A stretch of DNA of 64,000 nt, taken from assembly GCA_045638685.1 (NCBI GenBank), contig JAZUBT010000007.1, forward strand, positions 59,057 through 123,056. The letters are read 5' to 3'. The notes beneath the pieces were generated by a model that was given only the letters and a program-made list of their open reading frames with translations, made no database searches and was not told where the DNA came from. The position numbers were made by a program, and so were the translations under genes. Below, piece by piece: positions 7,752 to 32,243 of the stretch; position 1 is the stretch's first letter; each line of letters begins with the position of its first letter. This DNA is from Eubacteriales bacterium (GTDB taxonomy: Bacteria; Bacillota; Clostridia; Oscillospirales; CAG-272).

Positions 7752-7754
7752 GAC

Positions 7755-11497: not shown

Positions 11498-11640
11498 CAC
11501 CCGGTGGCAAATGGCAACGGTTTAATTTGAGCAAACATAGCCAGCGTCGGCAGGTAAGCACCTGCGGGCAAATGGCGACGGTTTTATTTGAGCAAACATA
11601 GCCGGCATCGCTAAAACCAAGGCTTTGGCGGGTAGCACTC
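11492..11640. repeat. Tandem ~61-bp intergenic repeat (2 units plus a partial third)
   Basis: Core GGCAAATGGCrACGGTTTwATTTGAGCAAACATAGCC at 11506-11549 and 11567-11610 (40/44 identical). A GGTAGCAC leader recurs at 11493, 11553 (as GGTAAGCAC) and 11631. Confidence 0.8.
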
Positions 11641-11752
11641 ACGGACGTATAAGGTTAAATATTTTCGCTCGGTCAAAAGTGTCGGGCGTAGCCGTAAATG
11701 AAGTTTTTGCATTATTGTTTGCAATAATTAGCTTTCTTTCAAAAAGCGGGAA

Positions 11753-11790
11753 GAAAAAAGCCGAGATAAAAATCTCGGCTTTTTCTTTTT
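11753..11790. terminator. Bidirectional terminator
   Basis: AGCCGAGAT/ATCTCGGCT stem flanked by an A-run and a T-run, between the nudix and suf genes. Confidence 0.7.
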
Positions 11791-11825
11791 TCGCTACGAT
11801 AAAAATTCTTACGTTTTTTGTGGGA

Positions 11826-12743
11826 TTATTTAAGAAATCCGTCGATAATAACGTTTTCCGCCTCATCGGGAGTAAGACCGAGAGTCTGAAGCTTTAAAAG
11901 CTGATCTCCGTTTATTCTACCGATAGCCGCCTCGTGTACTATCTGCGCGTCTCTGTGATTTGCCGCAATCTCAGGAATTGAACGGATATTGGAGTTATCC
12001 ATAATAATAGAATCACACTGAATATGCGCGCGACAAGAGTTATTTCCTACCGCAATAGGGTTAAACACCTGCTTTGAGTCGTCCTTACCAACGGAACGCG
12101 AGATTATCTGCGCCGAAGAGTCCTCTCCGTCAAGATTTATCTCCATATCCGACTGCGCAAACTGACTGCCGTGCGTCATAAGTCTCTCGGTAACCGTAAG
12201 CTTTGAATTTTTACCAAGATACGCGTTCATTTTTCTTACCGTAGAATCAACGCCCTTTATCTGTACCATTTCCATCTCGCAAACGGCATTTTCTCCAAGC
12301 GTTACCTCGGTGGCGGGGTTCATTATTCGCTCTCCCTTTCCGTCGCCCTCTCCGTAATGCTTTTCAACGTAACGGAGACGCGCGTTCTTTTCAATAAAGA
12401 ACCTATGGATTCCGTCATGCCTTGAATCCTTGTCTCCACTATTATGGATTCCGCAGCCCGCGACGATAAGAACGTCGGCGTCCTCGCCTACGTAGAAATC
12501 GTTATATACCATATCGTCTATTCCGGTTTCAGTTATAATTACCGGCATGTGAACCGACTCGTTCTTTGTTCCGGGCTTTATTCTTATGTCAATTCCAGCT
12601 TTATCCTCTTTTGTGATTATCTCTATATTTTCCGTGCTTCTTCTACCGCCGCTACCACCGTTTTTGCGTATGTTATACGCGCCGGCGGGTATTTCGTGAA
12701 GTCCCGCGACCTGCGAAAGAAGCTCTTTATCTATCTTTTCCAT
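11826..12743 (-). CDS. sufB: SufB/SufD-family Fe-S assembly scaffold (short clostridial type)
   Basis: 305 aa with beta-helix-like repeats and the C-terminal motif HEAAIGRINGDQLLKLQTLGL typical of the SufB/SufD family. It lies downstream of a SufC-like ATPase. Confidence 0.8.
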   Translation of the reverse strand: MEKIDKELLSQVAGLHEIPAGAYNIRKNGGSGGRRSTENIEIITKEDKAGIDIRIKPGTKNESVHMPVIITETGIDDMVYNDFYVGEDADVLIVAGCGIHNSGDKDSRHDGIHRFFIEKNARLRYVEKHYGEGDGKGERIMNPATEVTLGENAVCEMEMVQIKGVDSTVRKMNAYLGKNSKLTVTERLMTHGSQFAQSDMEINLDGEDSSAQIISRSVGKDDSKQVFNPIAVGNNSCRAHIQCDSIIMDNSNIRSIPEIAANHRDAQIVHEAAIGRINGDQLLKLQTLGLTPDEAENVIIDGFLK

Positions 12744-12838
12744 TTCAGTCTCCGTTCTACCGCTTTATTACTACGTTAATTCTTTTTTGGCTCCGTTTAC
12801 AGACGTTTCGGTAATTGCCTTTCAACAATATTACCTAA

Positions 12839-13567
12839 TCAGTCAGCCTGCTTTTTGGCGGCGCAGCAGGGCGAAAATTCGCACATAAGCTTCGGAAGCA
12901 TCTCCTTGCCGCTTCCTTGACTCTTGACCTTACCGTCGGCAATAACAACCATTTCGTCGGCAAGAGACATTATTCTCTCCTGATGAGAAATGATAACCGT
13001 CGTACCGCTCGCCTCTTTTTGCATTTTCTTAAAGGTTTCAACAAGCATTGAAAAGCTCCAGAGGTCTATTCCGGCTTCAGGCTCATCAAAAATCGCAAGG
13101 TCAGGCTTTCTTACCATAAGAGTCGCGATTTCAATACGCTTCATTTCTCCACCCGAAAGAGATGCATCAAGCTCTCTTTTTACGTATTCCGCGGAACAAA
13201 GTCCCACGCGACTGAGATACGCGCAGCTTTCCTTTTCACTTAAAGGCTTACCGGCCGCAAGAGAAAGCATCTTACTTACCGTAAGACCTTTAAATCTCGG
13301 CGGCTGCTGGAACGCATATCCTATACCGAGCTTCGCTCTCTCGGTTACCGACATGTCGGTTATATCCGTTCCGTTATATATTATTTTTCCCGACGTAGGC
13401 TTTTCAAGTCCCATAATAAGTCTTGCAAGCGTTGATTTTCCGCCGCCGTTAGGTCCCGTTATAACAACGAATTTCCCGTCGGCAACGGTAAGACTTACGT
13501 CATTAATAATTTCAAGAGTTTTGTCTCCGTCCTTTACCGTAAAGCAAAGGTTTTTAATTTCCAGCAT
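12839..13567 (-). CDS. sufC: SufC-like ABC ATPase
   Basis: Walker A GPNGGGKST, signature LSGGEMKR, Walker B AIFDEPEAGID. Paired with the SufB/D gene. Confidence 0.85.
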   Translation of the reverse strand: MLEIKNLCFTVKDGDKTLEIINDVSLTVADGKFVVITGPNGGGKSTLARLIMGLEKPTSGKIIYNGTDITDMSVTERAKLGIGYAFQQPPRFKGLTVSKMLSLAAGKPLSEKESCAYLSRVGLCSAEYVKRELDASLSGGEMKRIEIATLMVRKPDLAIFDEPEAGIDLWSFSMLVETFKKMQKEASGTTVIISHQERIMSLADEMVVIADGKVKSQGSGKEMLPKLMCEFSPCCAAKKQAD

Positions 13568-13846
13568 TTTTCCTGTCCTTCCAAAAAAACATTAGTTTTA
13601 TATATTTCTAATATATGATACCCCATTTTTAATTACTTGTCAATACGGTTTATTAAAAGTTTTACATTTCTTCAAAACTTTACTGTATTTTATAATATAA
13701 TTTTGTTGTATAATGTATAAGGTTATTTTTATATTTTTTAAAACAAATAAACTCCGCGCTGTTTTTCTGCATGCAGCGTTTATACCCCAGTCAGAGGCTA
13801 CATAAAAAATAAATTGCCGTATTTTACGGCGGAAGTGGAGAAAAAT

Positions 13847-15118
13847 ATGGACGTCATTGCAAAACCGTTTGGTTATCTCTTAAAATTTTGTTATGATATA
13901 ACAAATAGCTACGCGCTCGCTCTCCTTATTTTCACATTTCTTTTTAAGCTTATTCTTCTGCCGCTGAGCATCAAACAACAAAAGGCGTCGCAGAGTCAGG
14001 CAAGAATAAGACCTAAGGAAATGGCGATAAGAAAGCGTTACGTCGGCAGAACCGACCAAAGCGCGAGAATGGAGCTTTCAAACGACCTTATGAAGCTCTA
14101 TCAGGAGGAAAAGGTTTCCGCCGCGGGTGGCTGCCTGCCTCTTCTTATCCAAATTCCGATAATCTATATCCTTTATCAGATTATCACAAAGCCGCTTCAG
14201 TATATCTGTATGGCTTCCGTAACCGCTATCGGAGACTTAAGGACTAAAATATTTGAGCTTTTCGGCACGGGAACCTTAAACGCGGCAAACACCTCGGAAA
14301 AAATACTTAAGCACTTTACCGACGCGGGAGGCGACTTAAATAAATTCGGTATATCCGAAATTGAGATGCTGAGTGTTATGGAGAAAAACGGCTCGCAGTT
14401 TTCGGCTATTCTTGAGGGACACGGTCTTTCGGCAATGACTTATCCCGACTTCACTATTTTCAGAGGCGCTATAAACCTCGCCGAGCTTCCTACGTTTACA
14501 AGCATTATAATTTTAATCCCTCTTTTCGCCGCGCTTTTCCAATTCTTAGGCTCCTTTGTAATGAAGATATTTGGTCCTAAAATGGATATGTCAGCCCCCG
14601 GTGCGGAGCAGACGCAGAAAACAATGCTCTATATGAACATTATTTTCCCCTTAATGACCTTCTTTATGGCGCTTTCATTCCCCGCAATTCTCGGTCTTTA
14701 CTGGATATATCAGAGCATTTTCGGAGCGATTACTCAGATAGCTCTTTACAAGTTATATCCGATTCCCGTATTCACCCCGGAGCAGATTGCCGAGGTTGAG
14801 TACGAAATGAACAAGAATTACGTTAAGCCTACCGTAAAATCCACCGTCCGGTCTCTGCATAACATTGACGACGAGGTGCGCGAGGTAGAATACGCCGATA
14901 AAACCGACAGTGATACCGTCGATAACAGCGAAAGCAGCGTAAACACCGATACACCGGCACCAAAAGAGACTCTTCCGCCACGCAGAAGATATGATAAAAA
15001 CGGAAATAAAATCCGCTCTCTCCACTTTATCGATGAGGACGAGGACGAGATAACGGGTAGCGTATCCCCCGAAAACGGCGACGCACCCGAAACCGAAAAG
15101 GAAAACGGCGCAGAATAA
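13847..15118 (+). CDS. yidC: YidC/Oxa1 membrane insertase with a long acidic C-terminal tail
   Basis: LLIFTFLFKLILLPLSIKQQKA, GCLPLLIQIPI and LGLYWIYQS motifs. Start moved to ATG 13847 (GGAG 7 nt upstream). The tail from about aa 315 is non-membrane. Confidence 0.9.
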   Translation: MDVIAKPFGYLLKFCYDITNSYALALLIFTFLFKLILLPLSIKQQKASQSQARIRPKEMAIRKRYVGRTDQSARMELSNDLMKLYQEEKVSAAGGCLPLLIQIPIIYILYQIITKPLQYICMASVTAIGDLRTKIFELFGTGTLNAANTSEKILKHFTDAGGDLNKFGISEIEMLSVMEKNGSQFSAILEGHGLSAMTYPDFTIFRGAINLAELPTFTSIIILIPLFAALFQFLGSFVMKIFGPKMDMSAPGAEQTQKTMLYMNIIFPLMTFFMALSFPAILGLYWIYQSIFGAITQIALYKLYPIPVFTPEQIAEVEYEMNKNYVKPTVKSTVRSLHNIDDEVREVEYADKTDSDTVDNSESSVNTDTPAPKETLPPRRRYDKNGNKIRSLHFIDEDEDEITGSVSPENGDAPETEKENGAE

Positions 15119-15205
15119 AAGGCTACGGAGCAAAAGCTCTTTGACTTTCCCTATTTTGACATTTATAAAACAACAGCACCCCAAAAACGAAAGGATTTCT
15201 TAAAT

Positions 15206-16759
15206 ATGAAGTTAAAAACGGGACTTATTTTCGTTTTATCCGTCCTTCTTCTTTGCGTAACGCTCACCGCCTGCAAAAAGGACGAGGAAACACCCGAACC
15301 GGATGACGGCGGAGACGATTATTCCGGCTCCATCGCTCCCGAGGACGGAAACCAAAATCCGGGCGGAGAGGAAACCGAGGAACCGGTTGACGAGGGTGAT
15401 CCGAACGCAACGTATGAAATTTTTACTGCGGAAGACTTAAAAACAAAGCTCAAAATGAAGGGCACCTACGTTCTTAAGGCTGATATTGACCTTGGCGGCG
15501 CGGAGTGGAAACCTGTCGGAAGCAAGGCGCACCCGTTTGCGGGTACCTTTAACGGCGGCGGTTTTAAAATTTCAAACTTCAAGGTAACCGAAAAGCCTGC
15601 CGTCAGTGAGGGCGACGTTTCTCTTGCCTTAAAGTACGCATACGGTGGGTTTTTCGGAGTAACGGAAAATGCGACTGTTAAGGACGTAACCTTTGACGGT
15701 ATTACCGTTAATATCTCTTTAACCGAGGAAAATACGTTTATATACGCCGGAACGGTTGTCGGATACGCAAAAAACACCGTGCTTAACGGTATTACGGTAA
15801 CAAACACCGTGATTTCCGCACGAAGCGTAGAACATATAACTTACGTCGGTGGACTGACCGGCTCGATGTGGACCTCCTCGGCAAATAACTGCTCTGTCAA
15901 TGCGACGTTAAACGCAAAGGAGTCTCTTAATGACGCTTATTGCGGCGGAATTACGGGAGAATTAAGAGAAGAAAGTGCTCTTACGAGATGCTCCTCCGGC
16001 GGCTTGGTTTCATCGGTAGCAAAATACGGAAAATCATACGCAGGCGGTCTTATCGGATACTGCTCGTCAAGTAAAGTTTCAAAATGCGTAGCCGCTTCCG
16101 CGGTCAACGCAACAGTCAGCTCCCACTCCCCTGAAACGGGCAAAAAGGGCTCTGCCTACGCAGGCGGCTTTGCCGCAATTGTTACCGCACCAACGTTTAA
16201 TAACAGATCGGAGTTTTCCGAGTCCTATACAACCGACACCTGTACCGTTACCGCTACGGGAAACAAAAACGCCGCTTACGCAGGCGGATTTGCAGCTTAC
16301 TCGGCATTCGGAATATATACCTACTGTTACAGCCGTTCAAACGTAACGGGCGAAAGCACGGCAGACGCCGTATATGCAGCCGGACTTATCGCAAATTTAA
16401 TTAACTACGAGGACGACAAAAATGAAAAAGCCACCCCGTACCCATACGATACCCGTATAGAGGAATGCTTTTCAACAGGAAACGTAAACGTTAAAATATC
16501 TACTATGGCTTATTTTATCGGAACGCTTATCTACACCGACTCGTCGGTTAAGGACAATTTTATACTTGAAAGCAGCTACTACCAGAATATGAATTTCTAC
16601 ATTAATAACACCATCGATAACGCTAACGATAAAATTCAGAAAGACGGCAGCGCGATTACCTCGGCCACATACGGGAACCTCCACGTTCTTAATTGGAGCA
16701 CCGACGTCTGGGAAATAAAGCCCGGCGACAGCTTCCCGACACTAAAGCCCGCGACGTAA
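15206..16759 (+). CDS. Secreted lipoprotein with GLUG-type repeats
   Basis: Signal peptide with lipobox LTAC. Repeated Y(A/V/C)GG(L/F/I)xG motifs (YVGGLTG, YCGGITG, YAGGLIGY, YAGGFAA twice). Confidence 0.65.
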   Translation: MKLKTGLIFVLSVLLLCVTLTACKKDEETPEPDDGGDDYSGSIAPEDGNQNPGGEETEEPVDEGDPNATYEIFTAEDLKTKLKMKGTYVLKADIDLGGAEWKPVGSKAHPFAGTFNGGGFKISNFKVTEKPAVSEGDVSLALKYAYGGFFGVTENATVKDVTFDGITVNISLTEENTFIYAGTVVGYAKNTVLNGITVTNTVISARSVEHITYVGGLTGSMWTSSANNCSVNATLNAKESLNDAYCGGITGELREESALTRCSSGGLVSSVAKYGKSYAGGLIGYCSSSKVSKCVAASAVNATVSSHSPETGKKGSAYAGGFAAIVTAPTFNNRSEFSESYTTDTCTVTATGNKNAAYAGGFAAYSAFGIYTYCYSRSNVTGESTADAVYAAGLIANLINYEDDKNEKATPYPYDTRIEECFSTGNVNVKISTMAYFIGTLIYTDSSVKDNFILESSYYQNMNFYINNTIDNANDKIQKDGSAITSATYGNLHVLNWSTDVWEIKPGDSFPTLKPAT

Positions 16760-16805
16760 AAAACACGGCTAAAGCAATAAAAATCCGCGCTTTCCGCGGT
16801 AATAA

Positions 16806-16838
16806 AAACCCCACCGCATAACGGTGGGGTTTTCATTT
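16806..16838. terminator. Bidirectional terminator
   Basis: CCCCACCG/CGGTGGGG stem with an A-run upstream and a T-run downstream. Confidence 0.75.
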
Positions 16839-16846
16839 TGTCTTAT

Positions 16847-17821
16847 TTAATTACCGTTTGCCGCCCGAAGCTCCGCTATTTTTGCCTTAAGCGCCAGATA
16901 CGCTTCCTTCCCGTCGTAAATATCCTTAACCGTTTCCTCCATAGGACATATTCCGTCGCCACTGCGGTTAACTATGTATTCGACAAGCTTATTGTATCTC
17001 ACAGACACGCCGTGTTCATTAAACCATTCTACCGCCGCGCGGCTCATCGTAACTCCGTAGCAGCCTTTAACACCGCCGAGAGTCATTACCATAGCCGCCG
17101 CTTTTCCAATTATTTTATCAACGATATAACCGCCTTCAAGAAGTCCATCCTCGTAAAGCTTTATAACGGGCGCTATCCCTCTCGCGTTAACCGTATTTTC
17201 TATTACGTTTTCCCTTATAAGAACACAGGACGCGCTTTCCTCAAGTATCAAATTAACTGCCGAGGAGACGGCGTCTCTGTGCCTCCTTCTCGGATAATTC
17301 AGCACCGTAATGAATATAGCGGGAACGACTATAAGCTGAACGATAATTCCCGGCATTCCCGTTATTAAAGAGGCTATAACCGTTGCCGCCTTAAGCGAAC
17401 CGTCAAAGCGCAAAAGTAAGCTCATTGACAGTCCGTATATCGCTCTGCCCACTACCATTGCAGAAAGCATCGCGGGGTACATTCCAAGCTTATATTTACG
17501 GAGTGGGGTTTTATAATAAAGAAGTCCGGTTATAAGTCCGTAAGCTGTAAGCTCGATCGACATAAGCACTCCCGTCGGGTATAGTTCTGGCATTCCCGTT
17601 AAAACTCCGTTTATATACGGAAGCGTAAAGCCAAGTATTCCCGCGTATTTCCAGCCCGCAAGAAACCCGCAGAGAAATACCGGTATATGCATAGGAAGAA
17701 GAACGTTTCCTTTAATTCCGAGACCGTGAGCAAGGACGTAAGGTAGAATTAGTCCGAGCGCAAGCATTAGTCCCGAAATAACAAGCTTTTTACTATAATC
17801 TTTTATATTGTTTTCTCTCAT
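16847..17821 (-). CDS. ECF-transporter S component fused to a DUF1893 (TM1506-like) domain
   Basis: The N-terminal ~185 aa have 5-6 TM helices with PMHIPVFLCGFLAGW...ELTAYG (ECF_trnsprt-type). The C-terminal ~130 aa carry DKIIGKAAAMVM...NRSGDGICPMEE, which I recall as the DUF1893 signature. Confidence 0.65.
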   Translation of the reverse strand: MRENNIKDYSKKLVISGLMLALGLILPYVLAHGLGIKGNVLLPMHIPVFLCGFLAGWKYAGILGFTLPYINGVLTGMPELYPTGVLMSIELTAYGLITGLLYYKTPLRKYKLGMYPAMLSAMVVGRAIYGLSMSLLLRFDGSLKAATVIASLITGMPGIIVQLIVVPAIFITVLNYPRRRHRDAVSSAVNLILEESASCVLIRENVIENTVNARGIAPVIKLYEDGLLEGGYIVDKIIGKAAAMVMTLGGVKGCYGVTMSRAAVEWFNEHGVSVRYNKLVEYIVNRSGDGICPMEETVKDIYDGKEAYLALKAKIAELRAANGN

Positions 17822-21527: not shown

Positions 21528-21698
21528 TTAGCGCTCCTCTTTCTTTACAAGAACGTATTTGGGATTTCTGATGAGTACGCCTTCTTTAGTAATCAGAATT
21601 TCCACATCTTTATCAAGGTTAAAAAGCTTTCTTATTTCTTTAGGGATACAAATTCTCCCCATACAGTCTATCTCTTTTCTAACACCAATGTTTTCCAT
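21528..21698 (-). CDS. AbrB/SpoVT-domain DNA-binding protein (56 aa, below the ORF-track cut-off)
   Basis: Translation is MENIGVRKEIDCMGRICIPKEIRKLFNLDKDVEILITKEGVLIRNPKYVLVKKEER. GRIxIPKEIR is the swapped-hairpin AbrB motif. SD GAGG lies 8 nt upstream. Confidence 0.7.
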   Translation of the reverse strand: MENIGVRKEIDCMGRICIPKEIRKLFNLDKDVEILITKEGVLIRNPKYVLVKKEER

Positions 21699-21959
21699 TT
21701 TTTAACCTCGTTTTCTTAAAATAAAAAATGCGACAACCGAAGCTGCCGCACAAAACACAAACTCCGATTCGTCGCTCAACAAACCCTACGCAAACGGTAC
21801 TTTGATACCCTTATACACAGTTGGAATTTGTATTTTTCCTAGTCTTTCTGTATATAAGGACAAAATGGGCATAGTTATCCCTTGTTCAAAATAAACGCGT
21901 TTGCTAATATTTAGTTTGTTGAGCATTGATATTATAACACAAAAGAAAACCTTTGTCAA
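21699..21959 (-). promoter_or_regulatory. Promoter plus ~225-nt structured leader with an intrinsic terminator upstream of the AbrB-like gene
   Basis: TTGACA-17-TATAAT at 21931-21959. An 11-bp long-range helix pairs 21914-21924 with 21774-21784. There is a 12-bp inner helix CCTTATATACAG/CTGTGTATAAGG. The terminator GCGGCAGC-UUCG-GUUGUCGC plus U-run lies at 21717-21749. Confidence 0.6.
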
Positions 21960-22425
21960 GATAAAAAATTCGTGTCTTTTCGTGGTTTTTCGACTTTTTG
22001 CAGCATAGAGGCCGTACCCTTACTATCTTTTCAGAAAATTTTATCCCGCGATTCGAAAAGCACCCACCTCGGAGAAAAACCGCCGTGCTCCACCCCGCGA
22101 TTTGAATGTAACCTTTGGGTTCATTCAAAAAATCAGCCGTGCTTTTTGGCTGATTTAGCGGATAGCAAGGCTTAAAATTTCCACCTTTACGGAAAAACAA
22201 AGGCTACGTTTTTCAAAATTCGCTACGACGAAATTTTGAAAAAATGCCGCCGTGGGGTTGGCGGCATTAGTACGCAGCAAGGCCGGGCTTTTCCACCCAC
22301 GCTCTTTTTTCTTTTGGTGCCTTTTCTTTTTTCTTCGGAGAAACAAGAAAAGACACGAAAAAATAAATCGAAATCTCAAAATTCCTCCTGATTTAAATTA
22401 AAAGCCTGTAAAAAGCACCGGAAAT

Positions 22426-23418
22426 TTATCCGATGCCTTTTTCCGCAAGGTAGCTTTCGTACGCCTTCTTTAAATTCTCCGCAATGCTTATACGCAGAGC
22501 CTTCGGGTATATAACCTCTATATCGCTGCAAAGCCCGAGCGCAAAGGATTTAAACGCCTCCGCCTCGCAGTAAACCTGCATTTCTACCTTACCTCTGAAA
22601 TCCCTTATCGCCTCGGCGCTTTCTCCAAAGCTTTCATATACTCTTTCAAGGGCGTTCTGCCCTGCGATAAATACTATTCTCTCCTTTTTATCAAAATACG
22701 GTCTTTCCGCTTCAACCTTGTTATAAGGAAGATAGCCGTCGTAGGAGATGAGTGCGCTTTTTCCTACTATGTCGGTTACCGTAAGGTCGTACATTTTGTC
22801 AATCGGGAAATACATATATCTTCCGCTGTCTCCTATCGCGCCGAGCAGCTTAAAGCCGCCTCCGGTGCTTATAACCGTTTCGGGATTTACAAGGTACTCG
22901 ATAACCTGACCGCGCTCGTCTCTTTTAAGTCTAATCTTTCCGTTCTTTTGATAAATAATAACCGAAAAGCTAAGCATTTTTCTTTCCTTTATTGCTCCGA
23001 GCACTACCGAAAGCTTTTCCCTGCACGAGCTATGGTTAACCGTGCTTCTGCCCGCAAAAATCACCTTTTGATACACACCGAAATCGCCAACCTGCGCTGT
23101 CAGCTTTTTAAGTATTTCCGCGCCCTCGCTTTTGGGCACGTTAGGGTTTATTGCTATACTTTCGGCAAGCATTTCCTTTTCTCTTTCGGTAAAAATACGC
23201 TCGGCGCGCCAAAAACGCTTGTCCGTTTCCGAAATATCGGCAAGACCGTAGCTCATAAGCAAGAGAAGGTTGCGTTTAACCGTTTTTCTGTCAACCTCCC
23301 AGTTAAACTCCGTTTTAAGAAGCCTCGTTATCTCGCTTACGCTGATACCGTCTCCCCTATCTCCGTATTTTTTCAGGATCTCAAGTATAAACCACTGCGT
23401 TCTTCTTTTGTCGGACAT
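22426..23418 (-). CDS. WYL-domain transcriptional regulator (wHTH-WYL-WCX architecture)
   Basis: 330 aa. N-terminal wHTH (ISVSEITRLLKTEFNWEVDRKTVKRNL), a central WYL-like segment (LSFSVIIYQKNG...FKLLGAIGDSGRYMYFPIDKMYDL), and a C-terminal tail with IEVIYPKALR. Confidence 0.7.
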   Translation of the reverse strand: MSDKRRTQWFILEILKKYGDRGDGISVSEITRLLKTEFNWEVDRKTVKRNLLLLMSYGLADISETDKRFWRAERIFTEREKEMLAESIAINPNVPKSEGAEILKKLTAQVGDFGVYQKVIFAGRSTVNHSSCREKLSVVLGAIKERKMLSFSVIIYQKNGKIRLKRDERGQVIEYLVNPETVISTGGGFKLLGAIGDSGRYMYFPIDKMYDLTVTDIVGKSALISYDGYLPYNKVEAERPYFDKKERIVFIAGQNALERVYESFGESAEAIRDFRGKVEMQVYCEAEAFKSFALGLCSDIEVIYPKALRISIAENLKKAYESYLAEKGIG

Positions 23419-23649
23419 TTCTTTTCCCTCCGTTTTTTCACTGTGTTTTTCCTTTTACACTCATATTATATCACAGCAACTGTACTATAAATGGGATAGT
23501 TTCACTCAATTGATTTTAAAGGCAACGGCGGTAGAGCCCTCCCGCCGTTTATCGCACAGTAAAGCATTCTATGCACCATTTTTTTGCTTTAATTTACGGG
23601 TGTATTACGTTTAAACCTTATTTTTCCTTACTTTTTATTTTAAAAATTA

Positions 23650-23678
23650 TTGAAATATTCATAATATTTTTATATAAT
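23650..23678 (+). promoter_or_regulatory. Sigma-A type promoter of the ABC pair
   Basis: TTGAAA, 17 nt spacer, TATAAT. SD AAAGGAGG at 23702-23709, TTG start at 23719. Confidence 0.6.
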
Positions 23679-23718
23679 AAAGGTATAACGAAAATAACAT
23701 CAAAGGAGGTAAGTAATT

Positions 23719-26037
23719 TTGTCATTACTTCAGTTAAAAGACATTGGAAAGATTTACGTTTCAGAGGGTAACGTTTCGGTTGGTATCAGAGGCGTAAATC
23801 TAAGCTTTGACAAGGGTGAGTTCGTCGCCATAACCGGTGCCTCCGGTTCGGGTAAATCTACCCTTCTTAATGTCATAAGCGGTATGGACACATATGAGGA
23901 AGGCGAGCTGTTTATTGAAAACGAGCCCACCTCGCACTTTATGCAACCCGATTGGGAGGAATACAGAAAGAAATACATATCCTTTATATTTCAAGAGTAC
24001 AACATAATTGAAAGCTACACGGTGCTTCAGAACGTTGAGCTTTCCCTTATGCACATTGAAAACAAGAAAGAGCGCCGCGCACGGGCAATAGAGCTCCTTA
24101 ACCGCGTCGGAATGGGCTCTCATCTTAAGCATAAGGGCAGTAAGCTCTCCGGCGGACAAAAGCAGCGTACCGTTATCGCCCGCGCGCTTGCCAAGGACAG
24201 CCCTATTATCCTTGCTGACGAGCCGACGGGTAACCTTGACTCGGCAACCTCTGCGGAGATTATCGAGCTTATGAAGGAAATCGCGAGAGATAAGCTTCTT
24301 ATCGTGGTAACCCATAACTTTGAGCAGGTTGAGGACTACGCTACCCGTCATATAAGAGTTTACGACGGAGCCATTGAGTCAGATCAGGCTCTCCGTCCCG
24401 CTGAAAAGGTTACGGAGCCGTCCGAGGAGGCAGCCCCGAGAAAGAATAAACGCAAGAAGATGTCCGATTTTAAAAACGGACTTACTCTCGGAGGCGCTAT
24501 CTTCAAGGCAACGCCGAAGCTTTCCTTCTTTATGTGCCTGCTTATGCTTGTGGGTACACTCGGTATCTTCTTGTCTATTGCCACCTTCGGTAACTTTACC
24601 GATATGTTTAAGCCCTCGTATATGTTTAATAACATTGAAGGACGCGTTGTTCTCGTTAAACGGACGGGCGATGTTATAAAGAAAAGTGAGCTTGAAGATA
24701 TCAAAACGAAATACGGCGCAAAGAGCTACATTCATTTCGATTCTCTGCTTGACAAAAATATGTCAAACGACTGGCGCGGCGGAATCAGCTACGAAAAGCC
24801 AAACGGAAGCAAGCCGCGAATCGAAGCAAACTACGTTTTCGGTGAGAATATTACTCCCTCTGTCGGACGTCTTCCCGAAAAGGAAAACGAGCTTCTTCTC
24901 TCTCTTCCTATAAGCTATCAGACATTGTTCGGAAAAACCGAGCTTATAATAACCGAGGTAGAAATCGGCGATATGGAATATAAGGTAGTCGGTGTTCACT
25001 ACTACGCCGACAACAACCTTACTCCAAAGGCGCTTCTTTCCGAAAGCGGCTTTAAGTTTATGTCGGTTTACAACAAGTCCTTTAGCTCCGACAATACGGC
25101 ATATAGCGATCTCAATATGTATTTCAACGCTTACTTCTGGGATACAAGCGATAACAAAGAAACGCAGCAGTCTTATAACAGCAACGACGAATACATTTAC
25201 AAAGAATCTATAACGATTTCCTTTGACGAAAGCATTGTCCCGAACGGTAAAATAGCTATTTGCGACTCGTCCTATCTTGATTGGAAAGAGGCCGCCGGCG
25301 TTGACGTGTCGGAAATAACCCAAATCTTACGCTTTAACTACAATTACAGCACTTACACCGGATATGAGCCCAAATCCGAGAGTTTTAAAAAGACTATTTC
25401 CGAGGATAAGCTGGTATTTAACGAAACGAATACCGTTACGGGCGCGAGAATTATTTTCAGCCCCGCGGCTCTTATCGAGATTATGGAGGAATATTTAAGC
25501 GTTTCCTACGCTCAGGCGTCCGTTTTCTTTGAAAATGACGCAGAGGCTGCCGCCGCTGCGGAAAAGCTCAACGCCGAAGGATACCTTGCGGTTCCCGCAA
25601 ACACCACCTACGAGCCCGATCCGATGAGCATGATTTCAAGCACCTTGAACTGTATTTTCACGCTTATTATCTTCGTATTTATCACCGTGTTCCTTGCGTT
25701 CTTTATTAACCTTTGCTCGTCGAGAACCTTAAGTGCGTTCAAGAGCGATATGGCGATAATGCGTTCTATGGGTATAACGGTAAGCGTTATAAAGGCGGGA
25801 ATGTACGTAAGAATGTTCGTTTCCCTTATCCCCGCATTTATTTTACTTGCCGTATGTCCTTACTTTATTTACACCTCTCCCACAATAAACGGCTTTTTCA
25901 CCTATCTTTACCCCTATCAGTACGTTATCATAGCCGTATGTATGATTTTACTTACATATATGGTAACGCGTAAGCAGGTCAAAAAGCTGTTTAAGGAAAG
26001 CGTTAAAAAATCCCTGAAAGGAGGTAACGCAGAATGA
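23719..26037 (+). CDS. MacB-type ABC protein: N-terminal ATPase fused to an FtsX-type permease (ectodomain ~330 aa)
   Basis: Walker [29 protein letters not shown]. Then TM1, a large ectodomain and three C-terminal TMs (FtsX domain). Confidence 0.85.
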
Positions 26038-29000
26038 TTAGCATTAGATCGTTACACAAGTATTTTAATAAAAACAAGCAGAATGAAATTCACGTTATAA
26101 ACGACATCAGTCTCGACCTCCCCGAGCAGGGCATGGTAGCTCTTTTCGGTAGAAGCGGCTGCGGTAAAACGACGCTTTTAAACGCTATCGGAGGACTTGA
26201 CAAGACGCAAAGCGGCTCTATACTTATCGACGGAAAGGACGCAAGAAAAAAGCCCGACGTAATACGAAACCAATACATCGGCTACATCTTCCAGAACTAC
26301 AACCTAAACAATCAGCAGTCCTGCTTTGAGAACGTTGCCAACGCTCTTTATCTCTGCGGAATTACCGACAAGGCGCTTATCGAGGAAAGAGTTATGGCGG
26401 CGCTCGCGTGCGTCGGCATGGATAAGTATAAATCCCGTACTCCCGACACACTTTCGGGCGGTCAGATGCAGCGTATCGCTATTGCAAGAGCAATAGTTAA
26501 AAACCCGAAAATAATTCTCGCTGACGAGCCTACCGGTAACCTTGACGAGGCAAACACCATTCAGGTAATGGATCTTCTTAAAAAGATTGCGGAAAACCAT
26601 CTCGTTATTCTCGTTACCCACGAGGCAAACCTCGTTGATTACTACTGCGACAAGGTTATAGAGCTTTCGGACGGCAAGATATTATCGACGAGAGACAACT
26701 ACGGCGCAAACGGCTTTGCCGCGAGAAGCAAAAACGACATATACCTCGGTGAATATGAGAAAGCCGAGACAAACGCGGGCGGCGTAAACGTAGAATATTA
26801 CGGACAGACGCCGAGCGCTCCCGTAAGGCTCCGCATTGTTAACCACGGCGGCAAAATCTATTTAAGTGTTGACAGCGAAAGCGTACAGATACTCGACAGC
26901 GGAAGCGAGGTTAAGCTCCGCGAGGGCGTTTACACCGAGGTTGCGCGCACCGAGGAAAACAAGGCGAATATTGATATGTCTAAGCTGCCCCCGATAACCG
27001 GCTCGCATTTCGGACGTCTCTTTAACTTCCGCAGCTCCTTTAAGAGCGGATACAACGCAAATTTCAAAAAGAACAAGAAAAGCACGAAAGCGCTCCGCGC
27101 TTGTATGTTCCTGTTCTCTCTCGTTCTCATATTTATGTCGGCAAGCTTCGGAACCGCATTCAAGACCATTGACGACGTGAAATTGCAGTACAACCAAAAT
27201 ATGTTCTACGTTTACACAAACTCTGCCGATATTTCGAATAAGCTTAACGAGGCGGTAGGACAGCACGGAATAGACAATATTCAGCTTTACCCCGGCGTTC
27301 CCTACGGAAACGGTAGCTTTATAGTGTCCCCCGGCAGATTTGAGAGCTTTGCAACCGACGAGGCATCTTTTAAAGCCTACGCAGACGTTCTCGATATTAA
27401 ATTCGCCGGAGCTCCGACCGTTATCGCAGGAAAAGCCGATAATCTTTCGGACAGCGAGGTTGTTATAACGAGCGTTCTTGCCGACAGACTTATTGAGGCC
27501 TCTACGGTTGGATACGTTAAAAGCTACGCCGATCTTTTAGGACTCTACGCAAAGATTAACGCTTATAACGTTAATCAGAACGGTGTAAGAATAGTCGGCG
27601 TTATACAGTCCGAGGAAAGCGCGGTTTACCGTTCCTCCGTAAAGAGCGCAAACGACGTTCTAAACAGTATGGGAATTAACATTAAAATTAACAAATACAG
27701 CACTCTTACATTAAATAGCGGCGAGACCTACCTTATACTTTCTGACGAAGGCAACACCGTCGGCTTCCCGAACAAGGACGAAACTGTTAAAATAAACGGA
27801 AAAGACTTTAAGGTAAAGGACGTTATTTCGTATTATCATAACTACGATGAATATTTGTTCTCTATAGGAAGCCCGCTTGTCAAGCTTAATAACCCGGATA
27901 AGCCGGAACAACAGTATATAGAACGTATAGGGTTTGACGAATATTTCAGAAGCCTTGTTCAAGCCGAGTTTTATCCCGAACACCCGAATATCCAAAACTA
28001 CCAGAACTGGGAATACACAAATAAATTAGATGAGTACGCTAAAAACTACGTAAAGGATAACTTCTTTTCAGAGCACCCGAACATTAATGAATACCAGTGG
28101 AGTAATAATCCCGAAGAGAAAGCTATATATATTGAATTCATCACAAAGGTAGCTGAATACAAGAAAAATGAGAATATAATACAAGCAGTAAAAGCTGACT
28201 ATCTTTCGCAGTATCCCTATGATACTAACGTTGATAACCATCAATTATATTGTGAATACCAAGCTAGGGTTGAAGAGTACATCAGTGAGCACCTTGTTGA
28301 ATATTACGAGGAGATCTACAAGCATTTAGACGGATACGTAAAGCACAACCATATAATAAGACCCGATATTAACTCTTGGATTTACATTGAAAAGGGATTT
28401 GAAGAGCTGAAATTCAACAACATCTGGGACACCGATTATTTCTATATTTTAATGTTTAAAGAGAAAAACGGCAGATATCCTACCTATCAGGAATTCTACT
28501 ACACAGACAGAAACGAGCTGGCAAACGAATTCAAGCATGACTTTAACGAGCTTCACAGTCAGTACAGTAACGAATTCTATCAGGCAAATCCCGACGCGTA
28601 TAGCTATCGAAACAGTTACCTGCTTTGCGAAGCCGACTACGTTTCTCTTTCAACCATGCTTGGAGAAACGCACGAAAGTCTTTTAAACAGTGATGGCAGT
28701 TTCGGAGGCATAATAGGTGGCGGTATCATTATCGGCGGCGGAAAATACGAAAGCTCGGACATCGCCGTAAATTCCGGATTGCCGTACTATACCGCAATTC
28801 ATTCTACCGACCATGCGGCAACCGAGGCATTTCTTAAACAATTTGAGGGAACACAGGTTGCCGATCCCGAATACCAGAAGGCGATATACACGCCCGACGG
28901 TATGTTTGAAGACTTTATGTCTGACTTTAAAGCCGACGTTGTTTCAAAAATTATAGTTCTTACCGTATTCCTTGCTATAATGAGCCTCTGTATGTACTTC

Positions 29001-29333
29001 ATTATGCGTTCCTCTCTTATGGCAAGAATCAAGGAGATTGGAATATACCGCGCTATCGGTGTTTCCAAGAAAAACCTTACCTTCCGTTTCTTCGTCGAGG
29101 CGCTCGTGCTTACCACGTTTACGGTATTTATAGGATACGTAATATCAAGCGGAATACTCTTTGGTCTTTCGGCATCGGTTTCACTTCTTGACTCTATTCT
29201 CTACTACCCCGTATGGCTTGCCGGAGTGATACTCGCGGTTCTTTACGCCGTATGTCTTATCTGCGGTCTTATCCCGATATTCAACCTCCTGCGCAAGACT
29301 CCGAGCGAAATACTTTCGAAGTACGATATATAG
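26034..29333 (+). CDS. Second MacB-type ATPase-FtsX fusion with a ~590-aa ectodomain
   Basis: [30 protein letters not shown]1 is around aa 352-378, and three FtsX-domain TMs occupy the last ~130 aa. ATGA overlap with the upstream gene. Confidence 0.85.
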   Translation: MISIRSLHKYFNKNKQNEIHVINDISLDLPEQGMVALFGRSGCGKTTLLNAIGGLDKTQSGSILIDGKDARKKPDVIRNQYIGYIFQNYNLNNQQSCFENVANALYLCGITDKALIEERVMAALACVGMDKYKSRTPDTLSGGQMQRIAIARAIVKNPKIILADEPTGNLDEANTIQVMDLLKKIAENHLVILVTHEANLVDYYCDKVIELSDGKILSTRDNYGANGFAARSKNDIYLGEYEKAETNAGGVNVEYYGQTPSAPVRLRIVNHGGKIYLSVDSESVQILDSGSEVKLREGVYTEVARTEENKANIDMSKLPPITGSHFGRLFNFRSSFKSGYNANFKKNKKSTKALRACMFLFSLVLIFMSASFGTAFKTIDDVKLQYNQNMFYVYTNSADISNKLNEAVGQHGIDNIQLYPGVPYGNGSFIVSPGRFESFATDEASFKAYADVLDIKFAGAPTVIAGKADNLSDSEVVITSVLADRLIEASTVGYVKSYADLLGLYAKINAYNVNQNGVRIVGVIQSEESAVYRSSVKSANDVLNSMGINIKINKYSTLTLNSGETYLILSDEGNTVGFPNKDETVKINGKDFKVKDVISYYHNYDEYLFSIGSPLVKLNNPDKPEQQYIERIGFDEYFRSLVQAEFYPEHPNIQNYQNWEYTNKLDEYAKNYVKDNFFSEHPNINEYQWSNNPEEKAIYIEFITKVAEYKKNENIIQAVKADYLSQYPYDTNVDNHQLYCEYQARVEEYISEHLVEYYEEIYKHLDGYVKHNHIIRPDINSWIYIEKGFEELKFNNIWDTDYFYILMFKEKNGRYPTYQEFYYTDRNELANEFKHDFNELHSQYSNEFYQANPDAYSYRNSYLLCEADYVSLSTMLGETHESLLNSDGSFGGIIGGGIIIGGGKYESSDIAVNSGLPYYTAIHSTDHAATEAFLKQFEGTQVADPEYQKAIYTPDGMFEDFMSDFKADVVSKIIVLTVFLAIMSLCMYFIMRSSLMARIKEIGIYRAIGVSKKNLTFRFFVEALVLTTFTVFIGYVISSGILFGLSASVSLLDSILYYPVWLAGVILAVLYAVCLICGLIPIFNLLRKTPSEILSKYDI

Positions 29334-29417: not shown

Positions 29418-29470
29418 AGCGGGAGGGCAAGCATCTTTTGAAAAAAGATTCCCCTCCCCTACAAATTTAA
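29418..29470 (+). terminator. Terminator after the ABC pair
   Basis: Long hairpin GGGAGGG...CCCCTCCC with inner ATCTTTT/AAAAGAT pairing, followed by a T/A-rich tract. Confidence 0.5.
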
Positions 29471-29512
29471 AATTATAAAAACTTGCCGATAAATGGCGGA
29501 ACGGAGACAAAA

Positions 29513-30616
29513 ATGCATACAAACAATATAGCTGAATTTTTAAATTCCAAGGGGATTCCCTCGTCTGACGTAATTATCTACAAGAACCATAAGGAAATCT
29601 ACCGCTACTTCTGCGGATACAAGGACTCGGCTAAAACAAAGCCGATAACGGGAGATGAGCTTTATTATATCTGCTCGGGAACAAAGGTTATAACCAGCAC
29701 AGCGGCTCTGCGTCTTGTTGAAAGAGGTATTATAGGACTTGACGATCCGGTATCTAAATACATTCCCGAATATGCTACTCTTACCTACAAATCAGCGGAT
29801 GGAGTAAAGCCCTGCGAGAAGGTTATGACGGTGCGCCACCTCTTTGCTATGCGCGGCGGCCTTAATTACAACATCAGATCCGAGCCGATACTGGCGCTTC
29901 GCAGGGAAACAGGTAACAAGGCCGACACTCTTTCGCTTGTAAAAAGCTTTATTAAGGCTCCCCTTGAATACGAGCCGGGAGAGGGATTTCAGTACAGTCT
30001 TTGCCACGACGTTCTCGGCGCTATCGTAGAAATTGCATCAGGAAAAAAATTCGGGGAATACTTAAGAAGTGAGATTTTCGAGCCTCTCGGAATGAATGAC
30101 ACCGGCTTTTTCCCCACCGAGGAGCAGAAAAAGCGCTTTGCCGCGCAGTACCGCTACGAAAACGAAAGCTATGTTGAAACTCCCGTTGGCTGCGCATACT
30201 GTTTAAGCGAAAACTATGAAAGCGGCGGAGCGGGACTTTTCTCCTCTGTAAACGACTACATTAAATTCGCAGATGCCTTGGCGTGTAACGGAACCGCTGC
30301 TAATGGCTATCAGGTTTTAAAACCGGAAACCATAGCTCTTATGCGCGAAAATCAGCAGCGCGAGGATACTCCGCCTATTAAAGTAGGCTATAAATATGCG
30401 CTCGGCGTACGTTCAATGTATAACAAGGCCGAGGCAAACTCCGATGGGGATACCGAGCAGGAGTTCGGTTGGGACGGAGCGGCAGGCGCTTACGTTGCGA
30501 TTGACCCGAAAAACGGTCTTTCAATCTTTTACGCTGAGCACGTCTTCGGACACCGCCGGGCTTACTCCGACATACATCCCGTTTTAAGAGACAGTATGTA
30601 CTATCTTGACAAATAA
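29513..30616 (+). CDS. Serine hydrolase of the beta-lactamase/transpeptidase-like (class C/esterase) family
   Basis: SxxK motif (CSGTK), length about 367 aa, and a YSL motif consistent with the YxN-type position. Start after GGAGACAAAA. Confidence 0.7.
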   Translation: MHTNNIAEFLNSKGIPSSDVIIYKNHKEIYRYFCGYKDSAKTKPITGDELYYICSGTKVITSTAALRLVERGIIGLDDPVSKYIPEYATLTYKSADGVKPCEKVMTVRHLFAMRGGLNYNIRSEPILALRRETGNKADTLSLVKSFIKAPLEYEPGEGFQYSLCHDVLGAIVEIASGKKFGEYLRSEIFEPLGMNDTGFFPTEEQKKRFAAQYRYENESYVETPVGCAYCLSENYESGGAGLFSSVNDYIKFADALACNGTAANGYQVLKPETIALMRENQQREDTPPIKVGYKYALGVRSMYNKAEANSDGDTEQEFGWDGAAGAYVAIDPKNGLSIFYAEHVFGHRRAYSDIHPVLRDSMYYLDK

Positions 30617-30625
30617 GGACAAAAA

Positions 30626-31414
30626 GTGAAAGCTTATAATTTTTTTATTGACATTGACGACACTCTTATTCCGAAGGGATTAAGCTTTGTCCCCGAAAGA
30701 AATCTTTTCGCGATAAAAGAGGCAAAGGCTCTTGGACACAAATTTTTTGTCAACACAGGGCGTCCATTCTGCGATATACCGAAGGAATTTTTTGATACAA
30801 AATATTTTGACGGTATATGCAGCGGCGGAGATTACGTACAATATGAGGGAAAGCCGATATACTCCTGCTTTTTACCTAAGGAGAATGCTAAATCGCTTTT
30901 TAAGGCTCTTATGAGCATGGATAAAAAAATTGATTTTAATATCGGCGGACTTCGTAACAGATATTATATTGGCGAAAAACAGCCTCATTACTCAGATAAA
31001 ATTTACCGTTCGATTAACCTTATACACGAGCTTGATACGGTTTTTGACGGAGACGAACTGCAAAAATACTATCTCTGCCAAAGCGGTGAGCCGGATAGCG
31101 AGGTAAGGCGTGAAATTGAAAGGTATTTCGGCGTTATAACTCACCCGACCTATACTGAGGGCTTTCTTCACGGACACGACAAGGCGTTTTTAATGAGGAA
31201 AACCGAGCAGGCGCTTGGGCTTCCGCACGAAAACACTGTTGCCATCGGCGACTCGCTGAACGACGTTCAAATGCTCCTTTACGCGCCTACCTCATACGCC
31301 ATGGGTAACGCGCCCGACGAGGTAAAAAGAATTTGTACGCATATTGCCCCTGACTGTGATAAAAACGGGGTTGCGAGCATCCTCGCTCACTATATACACA
31401 GCCAAAACATATAG
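30626..31414 (+). CDS. Cof-type HAD-IIB phosphatase
   Basis: DIDDT (DxDxT), NTGRP and GDSLNDVQM motifs. GTG start. Confidence 0.8.
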   Translation: MKAYNFFIDIDDTLIPKGLSFVPERNLFAIKEAKALGHKFFVNTGRPFCDIPKEFFDTKYFDGICSGGDYVQYEGKPIYSCFLPKENAKSLFKALMSMDKKIDFNIGGLRNRYYIGEKQPHYSDKIYRSINLIHELDTVFDGDELQKYYLCQSGEPDSEVRREIERYFGVITHPTYTEGFLHGHDKAFLMRKTEQALGLPHENTVAIGDSLNDVQMLLYAPTSYAMGNAPDEVKRICTHIAPDCDKNGVASILAHYIHSQNI

Positions 31415-31454
31415 CATTACACTACTGTTCCCCCTTACAGAAAGGCATAACACG

Positions 31455-32243
31455 TTGAAAAAATTTAATTTCTTTATCGATATAGACGGTACGCTCATTA
31501 ACCACGGGGAAGGGAAAATTTCCGACGCTGTAATTTCAGCAATACTTAAGGCAAAGGAGAGCGGCTCGCGTTTTTTCATTAATACCGCCCGTCCGTACTG
31601 GCTTGTACCTAAAGAAATTTTCCCCGACGAGATTTTCGACGGCATCTGCTCCGGCTGCGGAACGTTTATCACCTACCGCGGAAAGGTTATCTACCAAAAC
31701 TTTCTCTCCGATGAGACGGTGAAGCAGACTGTCAAGGCGCTTGAAAAAGCCTTTCCTCCCGAATTTTCAATGCTTATCGAATGCAACGATACGAACTACT
31801 ATTATGGCGTCGAAATCCCGTGGTATCTTAACGCGGGTTTTAAAAAGCTTACGAATGCCGACCACATAGGAGCGCAGCGGAAGGCTCTTAAAGTGCAGAA
31901 GCTTTCTTTTAATATGCTCTCGGGAAATTTCAGCTACGAGATGTTTGATGATGTAAAGGATAAATTTGACGTTATGATACATCCGACGTATTCCGAAATT
32001 GTACCAAAGGGCTTTAGCAAGGGCGCAGCTCTGCAAATAACCGAGCGAGAAATAGGCATTGAACACGGTACATCCGTAGCTATCGGAGACTCTCTTAACG
32101 ATGCGGAAATGTTCAGATGCGCCGATATATCGATCGCAATGGGTAACGCCCAGGATAACGTAAAAGCACTCTGCGACTACGTAACAGATACTTGCGAAAG
32201 CGACGGTGTTGCAAGAGCGATTGAAATGCTTACGTCAAAATAA
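31455..32243 (+). CDS. Cof-type HAD-IIB phosphatase (paralog)
   Basis: DIDGT, NTARP and GDSLNDAEM motifs. Start set at in-frame TTG 31455 (KKFNFFIDIDGT), aligned with the upstream paralog. Confidence 0.75.
   Translation: MKKFNFFIDIDGTLINHGEGKISDAVISAILKAKESGSRFFINTARPYWLVPKEIFPDEIFDGICSGCGTFITYRGKVIYQNFLSDETVKQTVKALEKAFPPEFSMLIECNDTNYYYGVEIPWYLNAGFKKLTNADHIGAQRKALKVQKLSFNMLSGNFSYEMFDDVKDKFDVMIHPTYSEIVPKGFSKGAALQITEREIGIEHGTSVAIGDSLNDAEMFRCADISIAMGNAQDNVKALCDYVTDTCESDGVARAIEMLTSK

Follow-up and report, generated by a model that had tools for sequence, protein, structure and literature searches.

We analysed a three-gene locus within a 64,000-nt stretch of DNA (the window) from contig JAZUBT010000007.1 of a Eubacteriales bacterium (assembly GCA_045638685.1). 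Two overlapping genes encode large ATP-binding cassette (ABC) proteins, ABC1 and ABC2, in which a nucleotide-binding domain (NBD) is fused to transmembrane (TM) helices and a large ectodomain. A gene for a putative regulator of the winged helix-turn-helix (wHTH)-WYL-WCX family is transcribed divergently from them (Table 1). An initial annotation, made from the sequence alone, had read the locus as a WYL-gated, probably heterodimeric mechanotransducer. The three genes lie where that annotation had placed them, with the same coordinates, strands, and lengths in the list of open reading frames (ORFs). ABC1 starts with TTG, 9 nt downstream of the sequence AAAGGAGG; in one relative, the start codon position is occupied by ATG. 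The ATGA overlap of ABC1 and ABC2 described initially was also recovered, with a Shine-Dalgarno sequence (AAAGGAGG) just upstream of it.

Table 1. Features of the ABC1-ABC2 locus and its surroundings. Positions are nucleotides of the window unless marked as amino acid residues (aa) of a protein.
Feature	Position	Strand	Basis or remark
56-aa ORF (MENIGVRKEIDCMGRICIPKEIRKLF...) downstream of the candidate RNA	21528-21698	-	Weak SpoVT-AbrB (MazE/AbrB-type) match, PF04014, E 3e-4, sub-threshold
Candidate RNA of ~213 nt ending in an intrinsic-terminator hairpin	21718-21930	-	Minimum free energy -66.6 kcal/mol, z -5.4 vs shuffles
Promoter TTGACA-17-TATAAT	21931-21959	-	Perfect consensus
Terminator-like hairpin GCCGCC-8 nt-GGCGGC + T6, 3' of the regulator gene	22239-22265	-	Read from sequence
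Divergent putative wHTH-WYL-WCX-family regulator, 330 aa	22426-23418	-	ORF
Conserved block: regulator extended -10 TGATATAAT (23465-23473) and ~35 bp upstream	23455-23506	-	Five-genome alignment
GC-rich 8-bp hairpin	23524-23549		Present here; absent or unalignable in all four relatives
ABC operon promoter TTGAAA-17-TATAAT	23650-23678	+	11/12 consensus match; kept in 4/5 relatives
ABC1, 772 aa	23719-26037	+	ORF
Parts of ABC1	NBD aa 1-225, short linker, TM1 aa ~266-290, ectodomain aa ~291-642, TM2-4 aa ~643-750, conserved tail		
Translational-coupling junction: Shine-Dalgarno AAAGGAGG (26017-26024, within the last codons of ABC1), then ATGA stop/start overlap (26034-26037)	26017-26037	+	
ABC2, 1099 aa	26034-29333	+	ORF
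Parts of ABC2	NBD aa 1-220, cytoplasmic insert aa 221-352, TM1 aa 353-375, ectodomain aa 376-970, FtsX-type TM2-4 aa 971-1085		
ABC2 ectodomain: MacB/LolE-like Porter-Sabre core, extra beta elements, and ~220-aa helical insert	27159-28943	+	AlphaFold model
All-helical, tyrosine-rich insert of ~220 aa in the ABC2 ectodomain	27933-28586	+	Model; Tyr 12.7%
Hairpin GGGAGGG...CCCTCCC 3' of ABC2, probable operon end	29421-29458	+	Read from sequence; no strong T-run after it, terminator role uncertain

Both proteins contain an ABC ATPase domain (ABC_tran in Pfam, E 6e-33 for ABC1 and 9e-35 for ABC2). The Walker A, Q-loop, signature, Walker B, D-loop, and H-loop motifs are all intact in ABC1 and ABC2, in agreement with the initial annotation, which had recognised a complete ATPase in each protein from Walker A, signature, and Walker B. 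In neither NBD do the catalytic motif positions vary among the 64-70 species compared. The two NBDs share 40% identity and are nearest to the MacB, LolD, and FtsE types. MacB was the best PDB sequence match of ABC2, in the NBD portion only (E 6e-44). The top NCBIfam match of both NBDs was TIGR03608, the ABC protein of lactococcin-972-type bacteriocin systems, with 189 bits vs a cut-off of 255. The MacB equivalog NF007826 scored 175 and 151 bits vs a cut-off of 966 in alignments limited to the NBD, and the FtsE equivalog scored 160-174 bits vs 265; every NCBIfam score of the two proteins, that for the LolD equivalog included, fell below the curated cut-off. Hydropathy analysis indicated the same layout of one plus three TM helices in both proteins, with an ectodomain of ~350 aa in ABC1 and ~595 aa in ABC2. 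The plan put forward initially, i.e., NBD, one TM helix, large ectodomain (~330 and ~590 aa), and three TM helices, was thereby borne out. Pfam and NCBIfam yielded nothing on either ectodomain.

The fold of the ABC1 permease was accessible via structure prediction. Its transmembrane domain (TMD) and ectodomain gave no significant PDB match in a sequence profile search, and FtsX was not detectable by Pfam in its C-terminal part (E 2.5). We modelled aa 255-772 with AlphaFold from 96 homologues, with a predicted local distance difference test score (pLDDT) of 86.7 and a predicted template-modelling score (pTM) of 0.80. In the model, a coupling helix and a long TM1 are followed by a beta-alpha-beta ectodomain, a very long TM2 stalk, TM3, and TM4, which is the type VII plan. 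The top 30 Foldseek matches in PDB were all type VII permeases, among them LolE (E 1.2e-6), LolC, Spr0694-5, BceB, YtrF, HrtB, YbbP, and MacB; 22 matches had E<=1e-3, and there was no competing fold. FtsX itself (8tzk_C) matched weakly (Foldseek E 0.12). The presence of Porter and Sabre in ABC1 was judged from the whole-chain match, individual subdomains not being dissected. Relatives of ABC1 in databases are ~740-800 aa long, with 52-57% identity to ABC1 over 100% of its length.

ABC2 matches Pfam FtsX (PF02687) at E 3.6e-13. The FtsX domain assigned to each protein by the initial annotation was, accordingly, recovered from sequence in ABC2; in ABC1, it was missed by sequence and found as a match of the predicted fold. 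The AlphaFold model of the ABC2 ectodomain (pLDDT 91.1, pTM 0.85) begins beta-rich at its N-terminus, continues as an all-helical block of ~220 residues, and returns to a beta-alpha-beta element. Its sole significant PDB matches were the MacB periplasmic domain 3ftj and LolE 5udf (E ~1e-3, probability 1.0, ~180 residues). For the helical part, there was no match in PDB or in the viral structure library BFVD. Thus, sequence and structure searches connected the two ectodomains to no characterised family beyond the generic Porter-Sabre core of MacB and LolE; such a family had been named at the outset as something that could speak against the initial annotation. The ABC2 ectodomain was found by phmmer in just 128 of 1.84 billion cluster representatives. 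Because nearly all of these are 820-1016 aa long and have the ectodomain starting at residue ~380, it appears to be confined to the NBD-fused architecture. ABC2-like proteins in databases are generally ~960-1010 aa long. On the basis of the predicted structures, both proteins are NBD-fused half-transporters of the type VII (MacB/LolCE/FtsX) fold.

A conserved cytoplasmic segment of ~130 aa (aa 221-352, 26694-27089) lies between the NBD and TM1 of ABC2, with a column conservation of 0.64 and no match in Pfam. NCBIfam alignments of ABC2 to import-type ATPases with C-terminal regulatory domains reach residue ~292, and the segment could be a regulatory domain.

We assessed the distribution of the pair by scanning one genome per species with the non-NBD part of ABC1; ORFs were then called in 80 loci and labelled by BLAST. 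At least 141 species carry ABC1 relatives, all of them metagenome-assembled Clostridia from animal or human guts, labelled as Oscillospiraceae, Eubacteriales, Lachnospiraceae, Christensenella, or Ruminococcus. Both ABC1 and ABC2 have thousands of database relatives. ABC2 directly follows ABC1 in ~78 of 82 loci, i.e., wherever the contig allows, and the adjacency was seen in ~75 species; one gene intact without its partner was not found in any locus where the contig allows. The stop and start codons overlap in all 76 junctions compared across species: 65 as ATGA, six as GTGA, four as TAATG, and one as an 8-nt overlap. The Shine-Dalgarno sequence of ABC2 is encoded by a nearly invariant KGG in the conserved C-terminal tail of ABC1. 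Conservation decreases from the NBD (0.83-0.88) via the TMD (~0.7) to the ectodomain (0.28-0.5), with the helical insert being the least conserved region of ABC2 and the most variable of all. Profiles of the non-NBD parts of ABC1 and ABC2 showed no similarity to each other (hhalign probability 1.9%), and since these parts are unrelated by profile comparison, the two proteins are not redundant copies. A common origin of the two permease halves was rejected on the basis of this comparison.

No conserved third partner emerged: ORF clustering placed the largest family of non-ABC neighbours in nine of ~80 loci, and flanking genes differ in size, strand, and distance between loci. Upstream neighbours, assigned via Pfam for 20 of them, are unrelated housekeeping genes including those for P-type ATPase, DNA ligase, PheT, NrdD, MetH, TrkA, and rubrerythrin. 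No adaptor, bacteriocin gene, or secreted hydrolase is conserved beside the pair in ~80 loci, and no adaptor gene of the MacA/HlyD type was found in the annotated neighbourhoods of its relatives. Of the partners that the initial annotation had missed in this one genome (an adaptor, a bacteriocin gene, a BceRS-like system, and a hydrolase), none is conserved across the ~80 loci. The conserved unit is the ABC1-ABC2 pair, a self-contained module of uncultured gut and rumen Clostridia, and not a trio with the regulator. The ABC1 ectodomain was without counterpart in a plasmid search, and an origin of the pair in a mobile element or immunity island was rejected in view of this and of the core genes on its flanks. 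Tandem ABC1-ABC2 pairs occur in metagenome-assembled genomes labelled as Lachnospiraceae, with three in locus L083 (~4200-17100) and two in L076, which indicates paralogous expansion of the module.

Assignment of the regulator to the wHTH-WYL-WCX family, as proposed initially, was upheld by some searches and not by others. Pfam gave no WYL match, the WCX match remained below the gathering score (17 bits vs 23.9), and the WYL motif is degenerate (GFKLLG vs GRYYLIC in relatives). On the other hand, the PADLOC WYL model matched the regulator at E 2e-10. Using phmmer, we also found ~80 proteins of ~340 aa with both PF13280 and PF25583 that align to it with 25-29% identity over 95% of its length, colinear from wHTH through WCX. 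A joint family profile matched solved WYL proteins and PafC at E ~1e-7. The regulator thus appears, from its sequence, to be a divergent member of the wHTH-WYL-WCX family. Its nearest canonical WYL relatives lie in operon-like arrays (L088:4260-8787, L091:1399-5137, L092:3423-7041) with genes for UvrC, a Y-family polymerase, a soluble AAA-Peptidase_M41 protein, and type IV restriction (GmrSD), a setting of defence and DNA damage that is usual for WYL regulators.

The distribution of the regulator is much narrower than that of the pair. Close homologues form ~11 clusters at 78-100% identity, after which identity falls to 33%. All close homologues that could be placed belong to a single syntenic block, with metH, metF, and the regulator gene on one side and ABC1, ABC2, beta-lactamase, and HAD genes on the other. 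No regulator homologue was detected within 10 kb of the pair in ~75 other species, either by BLAST or with a WYL-family hidden Markov model (HMM); the sole HMM match near pairs elsewhere, in L076 at a distance of ~5 kb, was an unrelated WYL protein of 537 aa. Co-conservation of the WYL gene with the ABC pair had been set beforehand as a test of the initial annotation, and it failed outside the closest clade by BLAST, HMM, and synteny. With no such gene near the pair in ~75 other species, WYL gating is not supported as a property of the ABC-pair system. The regulator is a local, lineage-specific neighbour, and the term WYL-gated describes at most a feature of one genus-level lineage. Other regulators were seen beside the pair elsewhere: a histidine kinase 30 bp upstream (L036:7607-9196), adjoining the pair in just this one species, and two HTH_3 proteins downstream (L002:13219-15008). 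Each lineage appears to have evolved control of the pair anew. A literature search for WYL-ABC pairs found no relevant description.

We aligned the 300-bp intergenic region between the regulator gene and ABC1 from five genomes. Two blocks are conserved, namely the regulator promoter region and the ABC promoter, and the middle is unalignable. The block at the regulator promoter is the best-conserved stretch of the alignment and may be regarded as a candidate operator or autoregulation site. The initial annotation had predicted a sigma-A-like promoter in each direction. The plus-strand promoter proved to be real and conserved; the one on the minus strand has an extended -10 (TGATATAAT), and its -35 is poor. 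The GC-rich hairpin described in the same annotation exists, but it is not conserved and is unique to this genome among the five. A role for it as operator or terminator was rejected, given the lack of conservation and of a T-run after it. In this genome, the terminator-like hairpin 3' of the regulator gene argues against a transcript shared with metF-metH.

The gap between the regulator gene and metF measures 1.08 kb and represents an insertion, as related genomes have ~175-225 bp there. On the minus strand, the insertion carries, in this order, a perfect sigma-70 promoter, an RNA of ~210 nt, a terminator, and a 56-aa MazE/AbrB-like ORF, beside which there is no toxin gene. The RNA has no match in Rfam. 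Homologues were found at L043:15528-15756, L080:6186-6389, and L095:1297-1513, and the 13-bp closing helix is kept in these three, with compensatory changes at six pairs and none broken. A covariance model of the RNA (R1) detected further copies, including shorter variants, at L031:9045-9177 (+), L080:6186-6389 (+), L047:6349-6495 (-), and L033:3225-3417 (+). In L031, a short attenuator-like variant (promoter, leader, and terminator) directly precedes the ABC1 start at 9228. In L080, the full-length RNA precedes a 128-aa multi-TM ORF that is itself 49 bp upstream of ABC1. Genes downstream of the other copies differ. Importantly, the RNA was searched for in loci centred on the ABC pair, and its proximity to the pair is partly by construction. 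It may represent a new cis-regulatory class of gut Clostridia and is a candidate attenuator or riboswitch-like RNA. A further stretch of ~270 bp with two terminator-like hairpins (22095-22363) shares 77% identity with L084:877-1148, an intergenic site of a related genome flanked by two genes for HAD hydrolases. This stretch is a possible small RNA gene or a possible small element of the repeated or mobile kind.

Downstream of ABC2, the region 29483-32243 encodes a beta-lactamase-fold serine hydrolase (PF00144, E 3e-63, SxxK motif) and two Cof-type HAD hydrolases. No signal peptide could be read from the sequence of the beta-lactamase-fold protein. These genes are syntenic in all close relatives and not in the wider ABC-pair family.

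On balance, we think it probable that the two-gene chromosomal operon specifies an obligate, asymmetric heterodimeric type VII ABC mechanotransducer, to which the WYL regulator is a local addition. ABC1 and ABC2 would pair in a 1:1 ratio, and both ATP sites of the resulting asymmetric heterodimer would be catalytically competent. The genomic arrangement strongly suggests such a heterodimer, because adjacency is strict and the stop/start overlap is present in 76 of 76 junctions; the words "probably heterodimeric" in the initial annotation gain support from the same two observations. ATP binding and hydrolysis in the cytoplasm would be passed on via the long TM1 and TM2 stalk helices, on the model of MacB, LolCDE, HrtBA, BceAB, and FtsEX. 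The stalks would then move the two large, dissimilar extracytoplasmic domains, and no transmembrane channel would be opened. Such mechanotransmission is the established mechanism for MacB, LolCDE, and relatives (PMC5985334). As its most likely output, the machine would extract or expel an amphipathic or lipid-anchored molecule residing in the outer leaflet or at the cell surface. We prefer this substrate class because the best structural relatives, LolE/LolC, HrtB, BceB, and Spr0694-5, all handle compounds of this type in the outer leaflet. In ABC2, the helical ectodomain, variable and rich in tyrosine, may serve as a specificity or hand-over module. In this lineage only, the wHTH-WYL-WCX regulator would have come to lie divergently upstream, probably as a local transcriptional regulator, and its control of the ABC operon is plausible from the gene arrangement.

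Several observations weigh against this interpretation. With solved type VII permeases, our models gave low Foldseek TM-scores (0.2-0.38), though the E-values and probabilities are good; for ABC1, low scores are expected from the extra domains and flexible stalks. The tandem pairs are as compatible with an exporter or resistance family that diversifies its substrates as they are with a housekeeping machine. As for the regulator, its 33%-identical homologue P0012 has no adjacent ABC gene on a contig of only 2.1 kb, and its nearest canonical relatives (25-29% identity) adjoin GmrSD, AAA-M41 protease, and DNA-repair genes, not transporters. The regulator could control only itself or something else.

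That the WYL protein is an unrelated neighbour, regulating itself or other genes and placed divergently by an accident of gene order in one genus, is a serious possibility, although we lean away from it. Its restriction to one syntenic clade, its absence from ~75 other pair-bearing species, and the company of defence and DNA-damage genes kept by its canonical relatives all fit this view, as does the distant species L069, in which metH lies directly beside the pair without a WYL gene. Nevertheless, a regulator and its target diverging from a shared intergenic region form what is generally known as the commonest arrangement of local regulators. Moreover, five genomes retain both promoter blocks but not the intervening spacer, and the regulator gene has its own terminator-like hairpin before metF. 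For the pair itself, two independent homodimeric MacB-like transporters, merely co-transcribed and each self-pairing, would be in line with the homodimeric state of MacB and FtsX (PMC5985334) and with the full set of catalytic motifs in both proteins. We consider this distinctly improbable, given the strict adjacency and the 76 overlapping junctions across ~75 species. The ABC2 ectodomain almost never occurs outside the paired architecture, neither gene was seen intact alone where the contig allows, and the TMD and ectodomain sequences are unrelated, as expected of specialised partners such as LolC and LolE.

Resistance or immunity to antimicrobial peptides or bacteriocins, by a transporter of the BceAB, SalXY, or lactococcin-972 kind induced through the WYL regulator, is unlikely in our estimation. 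It would agree with TIGR03608 as the best NCBIfam match of both NBDs, with BceB and Spr0694-5 among the structural matches, with the histidine kinase 30 bp upstream in one species (L036), with the tandem paralogous pairs (L083), and with the ectodomain as the most variable part. However, all NCBIfam scores are under the cut-off (189 vs 255 bits), the proteins have four TM helices and not 10 and a fused NBD, and no bacteriocin, immunity, or two-component gene is conserved nearby. The pair also lies among core housekeeping genes and not on plasmids, and conservation of the NBD and TMD is high across orders. This core-genome location and conservation would suit envelope housekeeping, and hence also an FtsEX-like regulator of a cell-wall hydrolase or other extracellular enzyme encoded elsewhere, with the helical ectodomain of ABC2 as a docking lever, like the X-lobe of FtsX with EnvC or PcsB. 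The type VII fold, the large helical ectodomain insert without enzymatic signature, and the lack of evidence for a transport partner point in the same direction. We find this quite unlikely, because no hydrolase or coiled-coil partner is adjacent in ~80 loci and FtsX is a weak structural match (8tzk_C, E 0.12) compared with LolE/LolC (E 1e-6); the downstream beta-lactamase-fold protein lacks a signal peptide and is conserved in the syntenic clade only. Finally, the pair might constitute a distinct, undescribed class, in which two half-transporters with fused NBDs and mutually unrelated membrane and surface parts, one with a fold-novel Tyr-rich helical ectodomain, would form an obligate heterodimer; it would serve a conserved envelope function specific to a large clade of uncultured gut Clostridia (e.g., for a surface lipid, lipoprotein, or polymer) and not drug or peptide resistance. 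We hold this proposal to be rather doubtful.

Given its abundance and high conservation among uncultured Clostridia of gut and rumen, the pair probably matters to the envelope biology of organisms for which no genetics is available. The high-confidence models make it accessible for cryo-electron microscopy and heterologous expression. No long-standing question is opened by the pair, and the WYL link is of little general insight.

Known type VII arrangements comprise fused homodimers (MacB), unfused homodimers (FtsEX and HrtBA), unfused heterodimers (LolCDE), and internally duplicated permeases (BceB and YbbP). A heterodimer of two NBD-fused, mutually unrelated halves is not among the arrangements listed in the type VII review (PMC5985334), and a full-text literature search found no description of this paired ABC family. 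Like the pair, MacB has an N-terminal fused NBD, four TM helices, and a large extracytoplasmic domain with a Porter-Sabre core between TM1 and TM2. MacB, an exporter of macrolides and toxins in E. coli, A. actinomycetemcomitans, and A. baumannii, is a homodimer working with the MacA adaptor and TolC; the pair, in contrast, consists of two unrelated half-transporters, is without an adaptor, has ectodomains 1.7 to 3 times larger, and carries a 130-aa cytoplasmic insert in ABC2. LolCDE resembles what is proposed for the pair in that its two type VII permeases form an asymmetric heterodimer and their ectodomains have distinct roles, and LolE/LolC were the best structural matches of the ABC1 model (E 1e-6). 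However, LolC and LolE can be recognised as paralogues and depend on LolD as a separate ATPase, whereas the NBDs of the pair are fused and its TMD and ectodomain parts are without sequence similarity. LolCDE is furthermore a lipoprotein extractor of diderms, while the hosts of the pair are Clostridia and no LolA-like partner was seen.

Among Gram-positive type VII transporters, BceAB, Spr0694-0695, and YknYZ, which confer peptide resistance in Firmicutes, have a large extracellular domain, as does the pair. BceB differs by its 10 TM helices, separate ATPase, and BceRS two-component system, none of which is conserved in the pair with its four TM helices and fused NBD. Spr0694-5 and YknYZ have separate ATPases and an adaptor resembling membrane fusion proteins, neither of which is present or conserved in the pair. 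FtsEX shares the type VII fold, the action as mechanotransducer without a transported substrate, and an ectodomain with a helical lobe. Yet FtsE and FtsX are separate proteins that form a homodimer with a small ectodomain (~100-150 aa) and a dedicated hydrolase or activator partner; the pair is fused and has no such partner adjacent. The regulator appears to share the wHTH-WYL-WCX order, and shares the length of ~330 aa, with PafBC, BrxR, CapW, and YafY-like WYL regulators, and unlike typical members it adjoins an ABC operon and not a defence or DNA-damage module. In its structural features the pair is a type VII ABC system, and it falls outside MacB pumps, BceAB, LolCDE, and FtsEX by the features that define each of them. 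The superfamily fold itself is known; the novelty would lie in the proposed heterodimer of two fused, mutually unrelated type VII halves.

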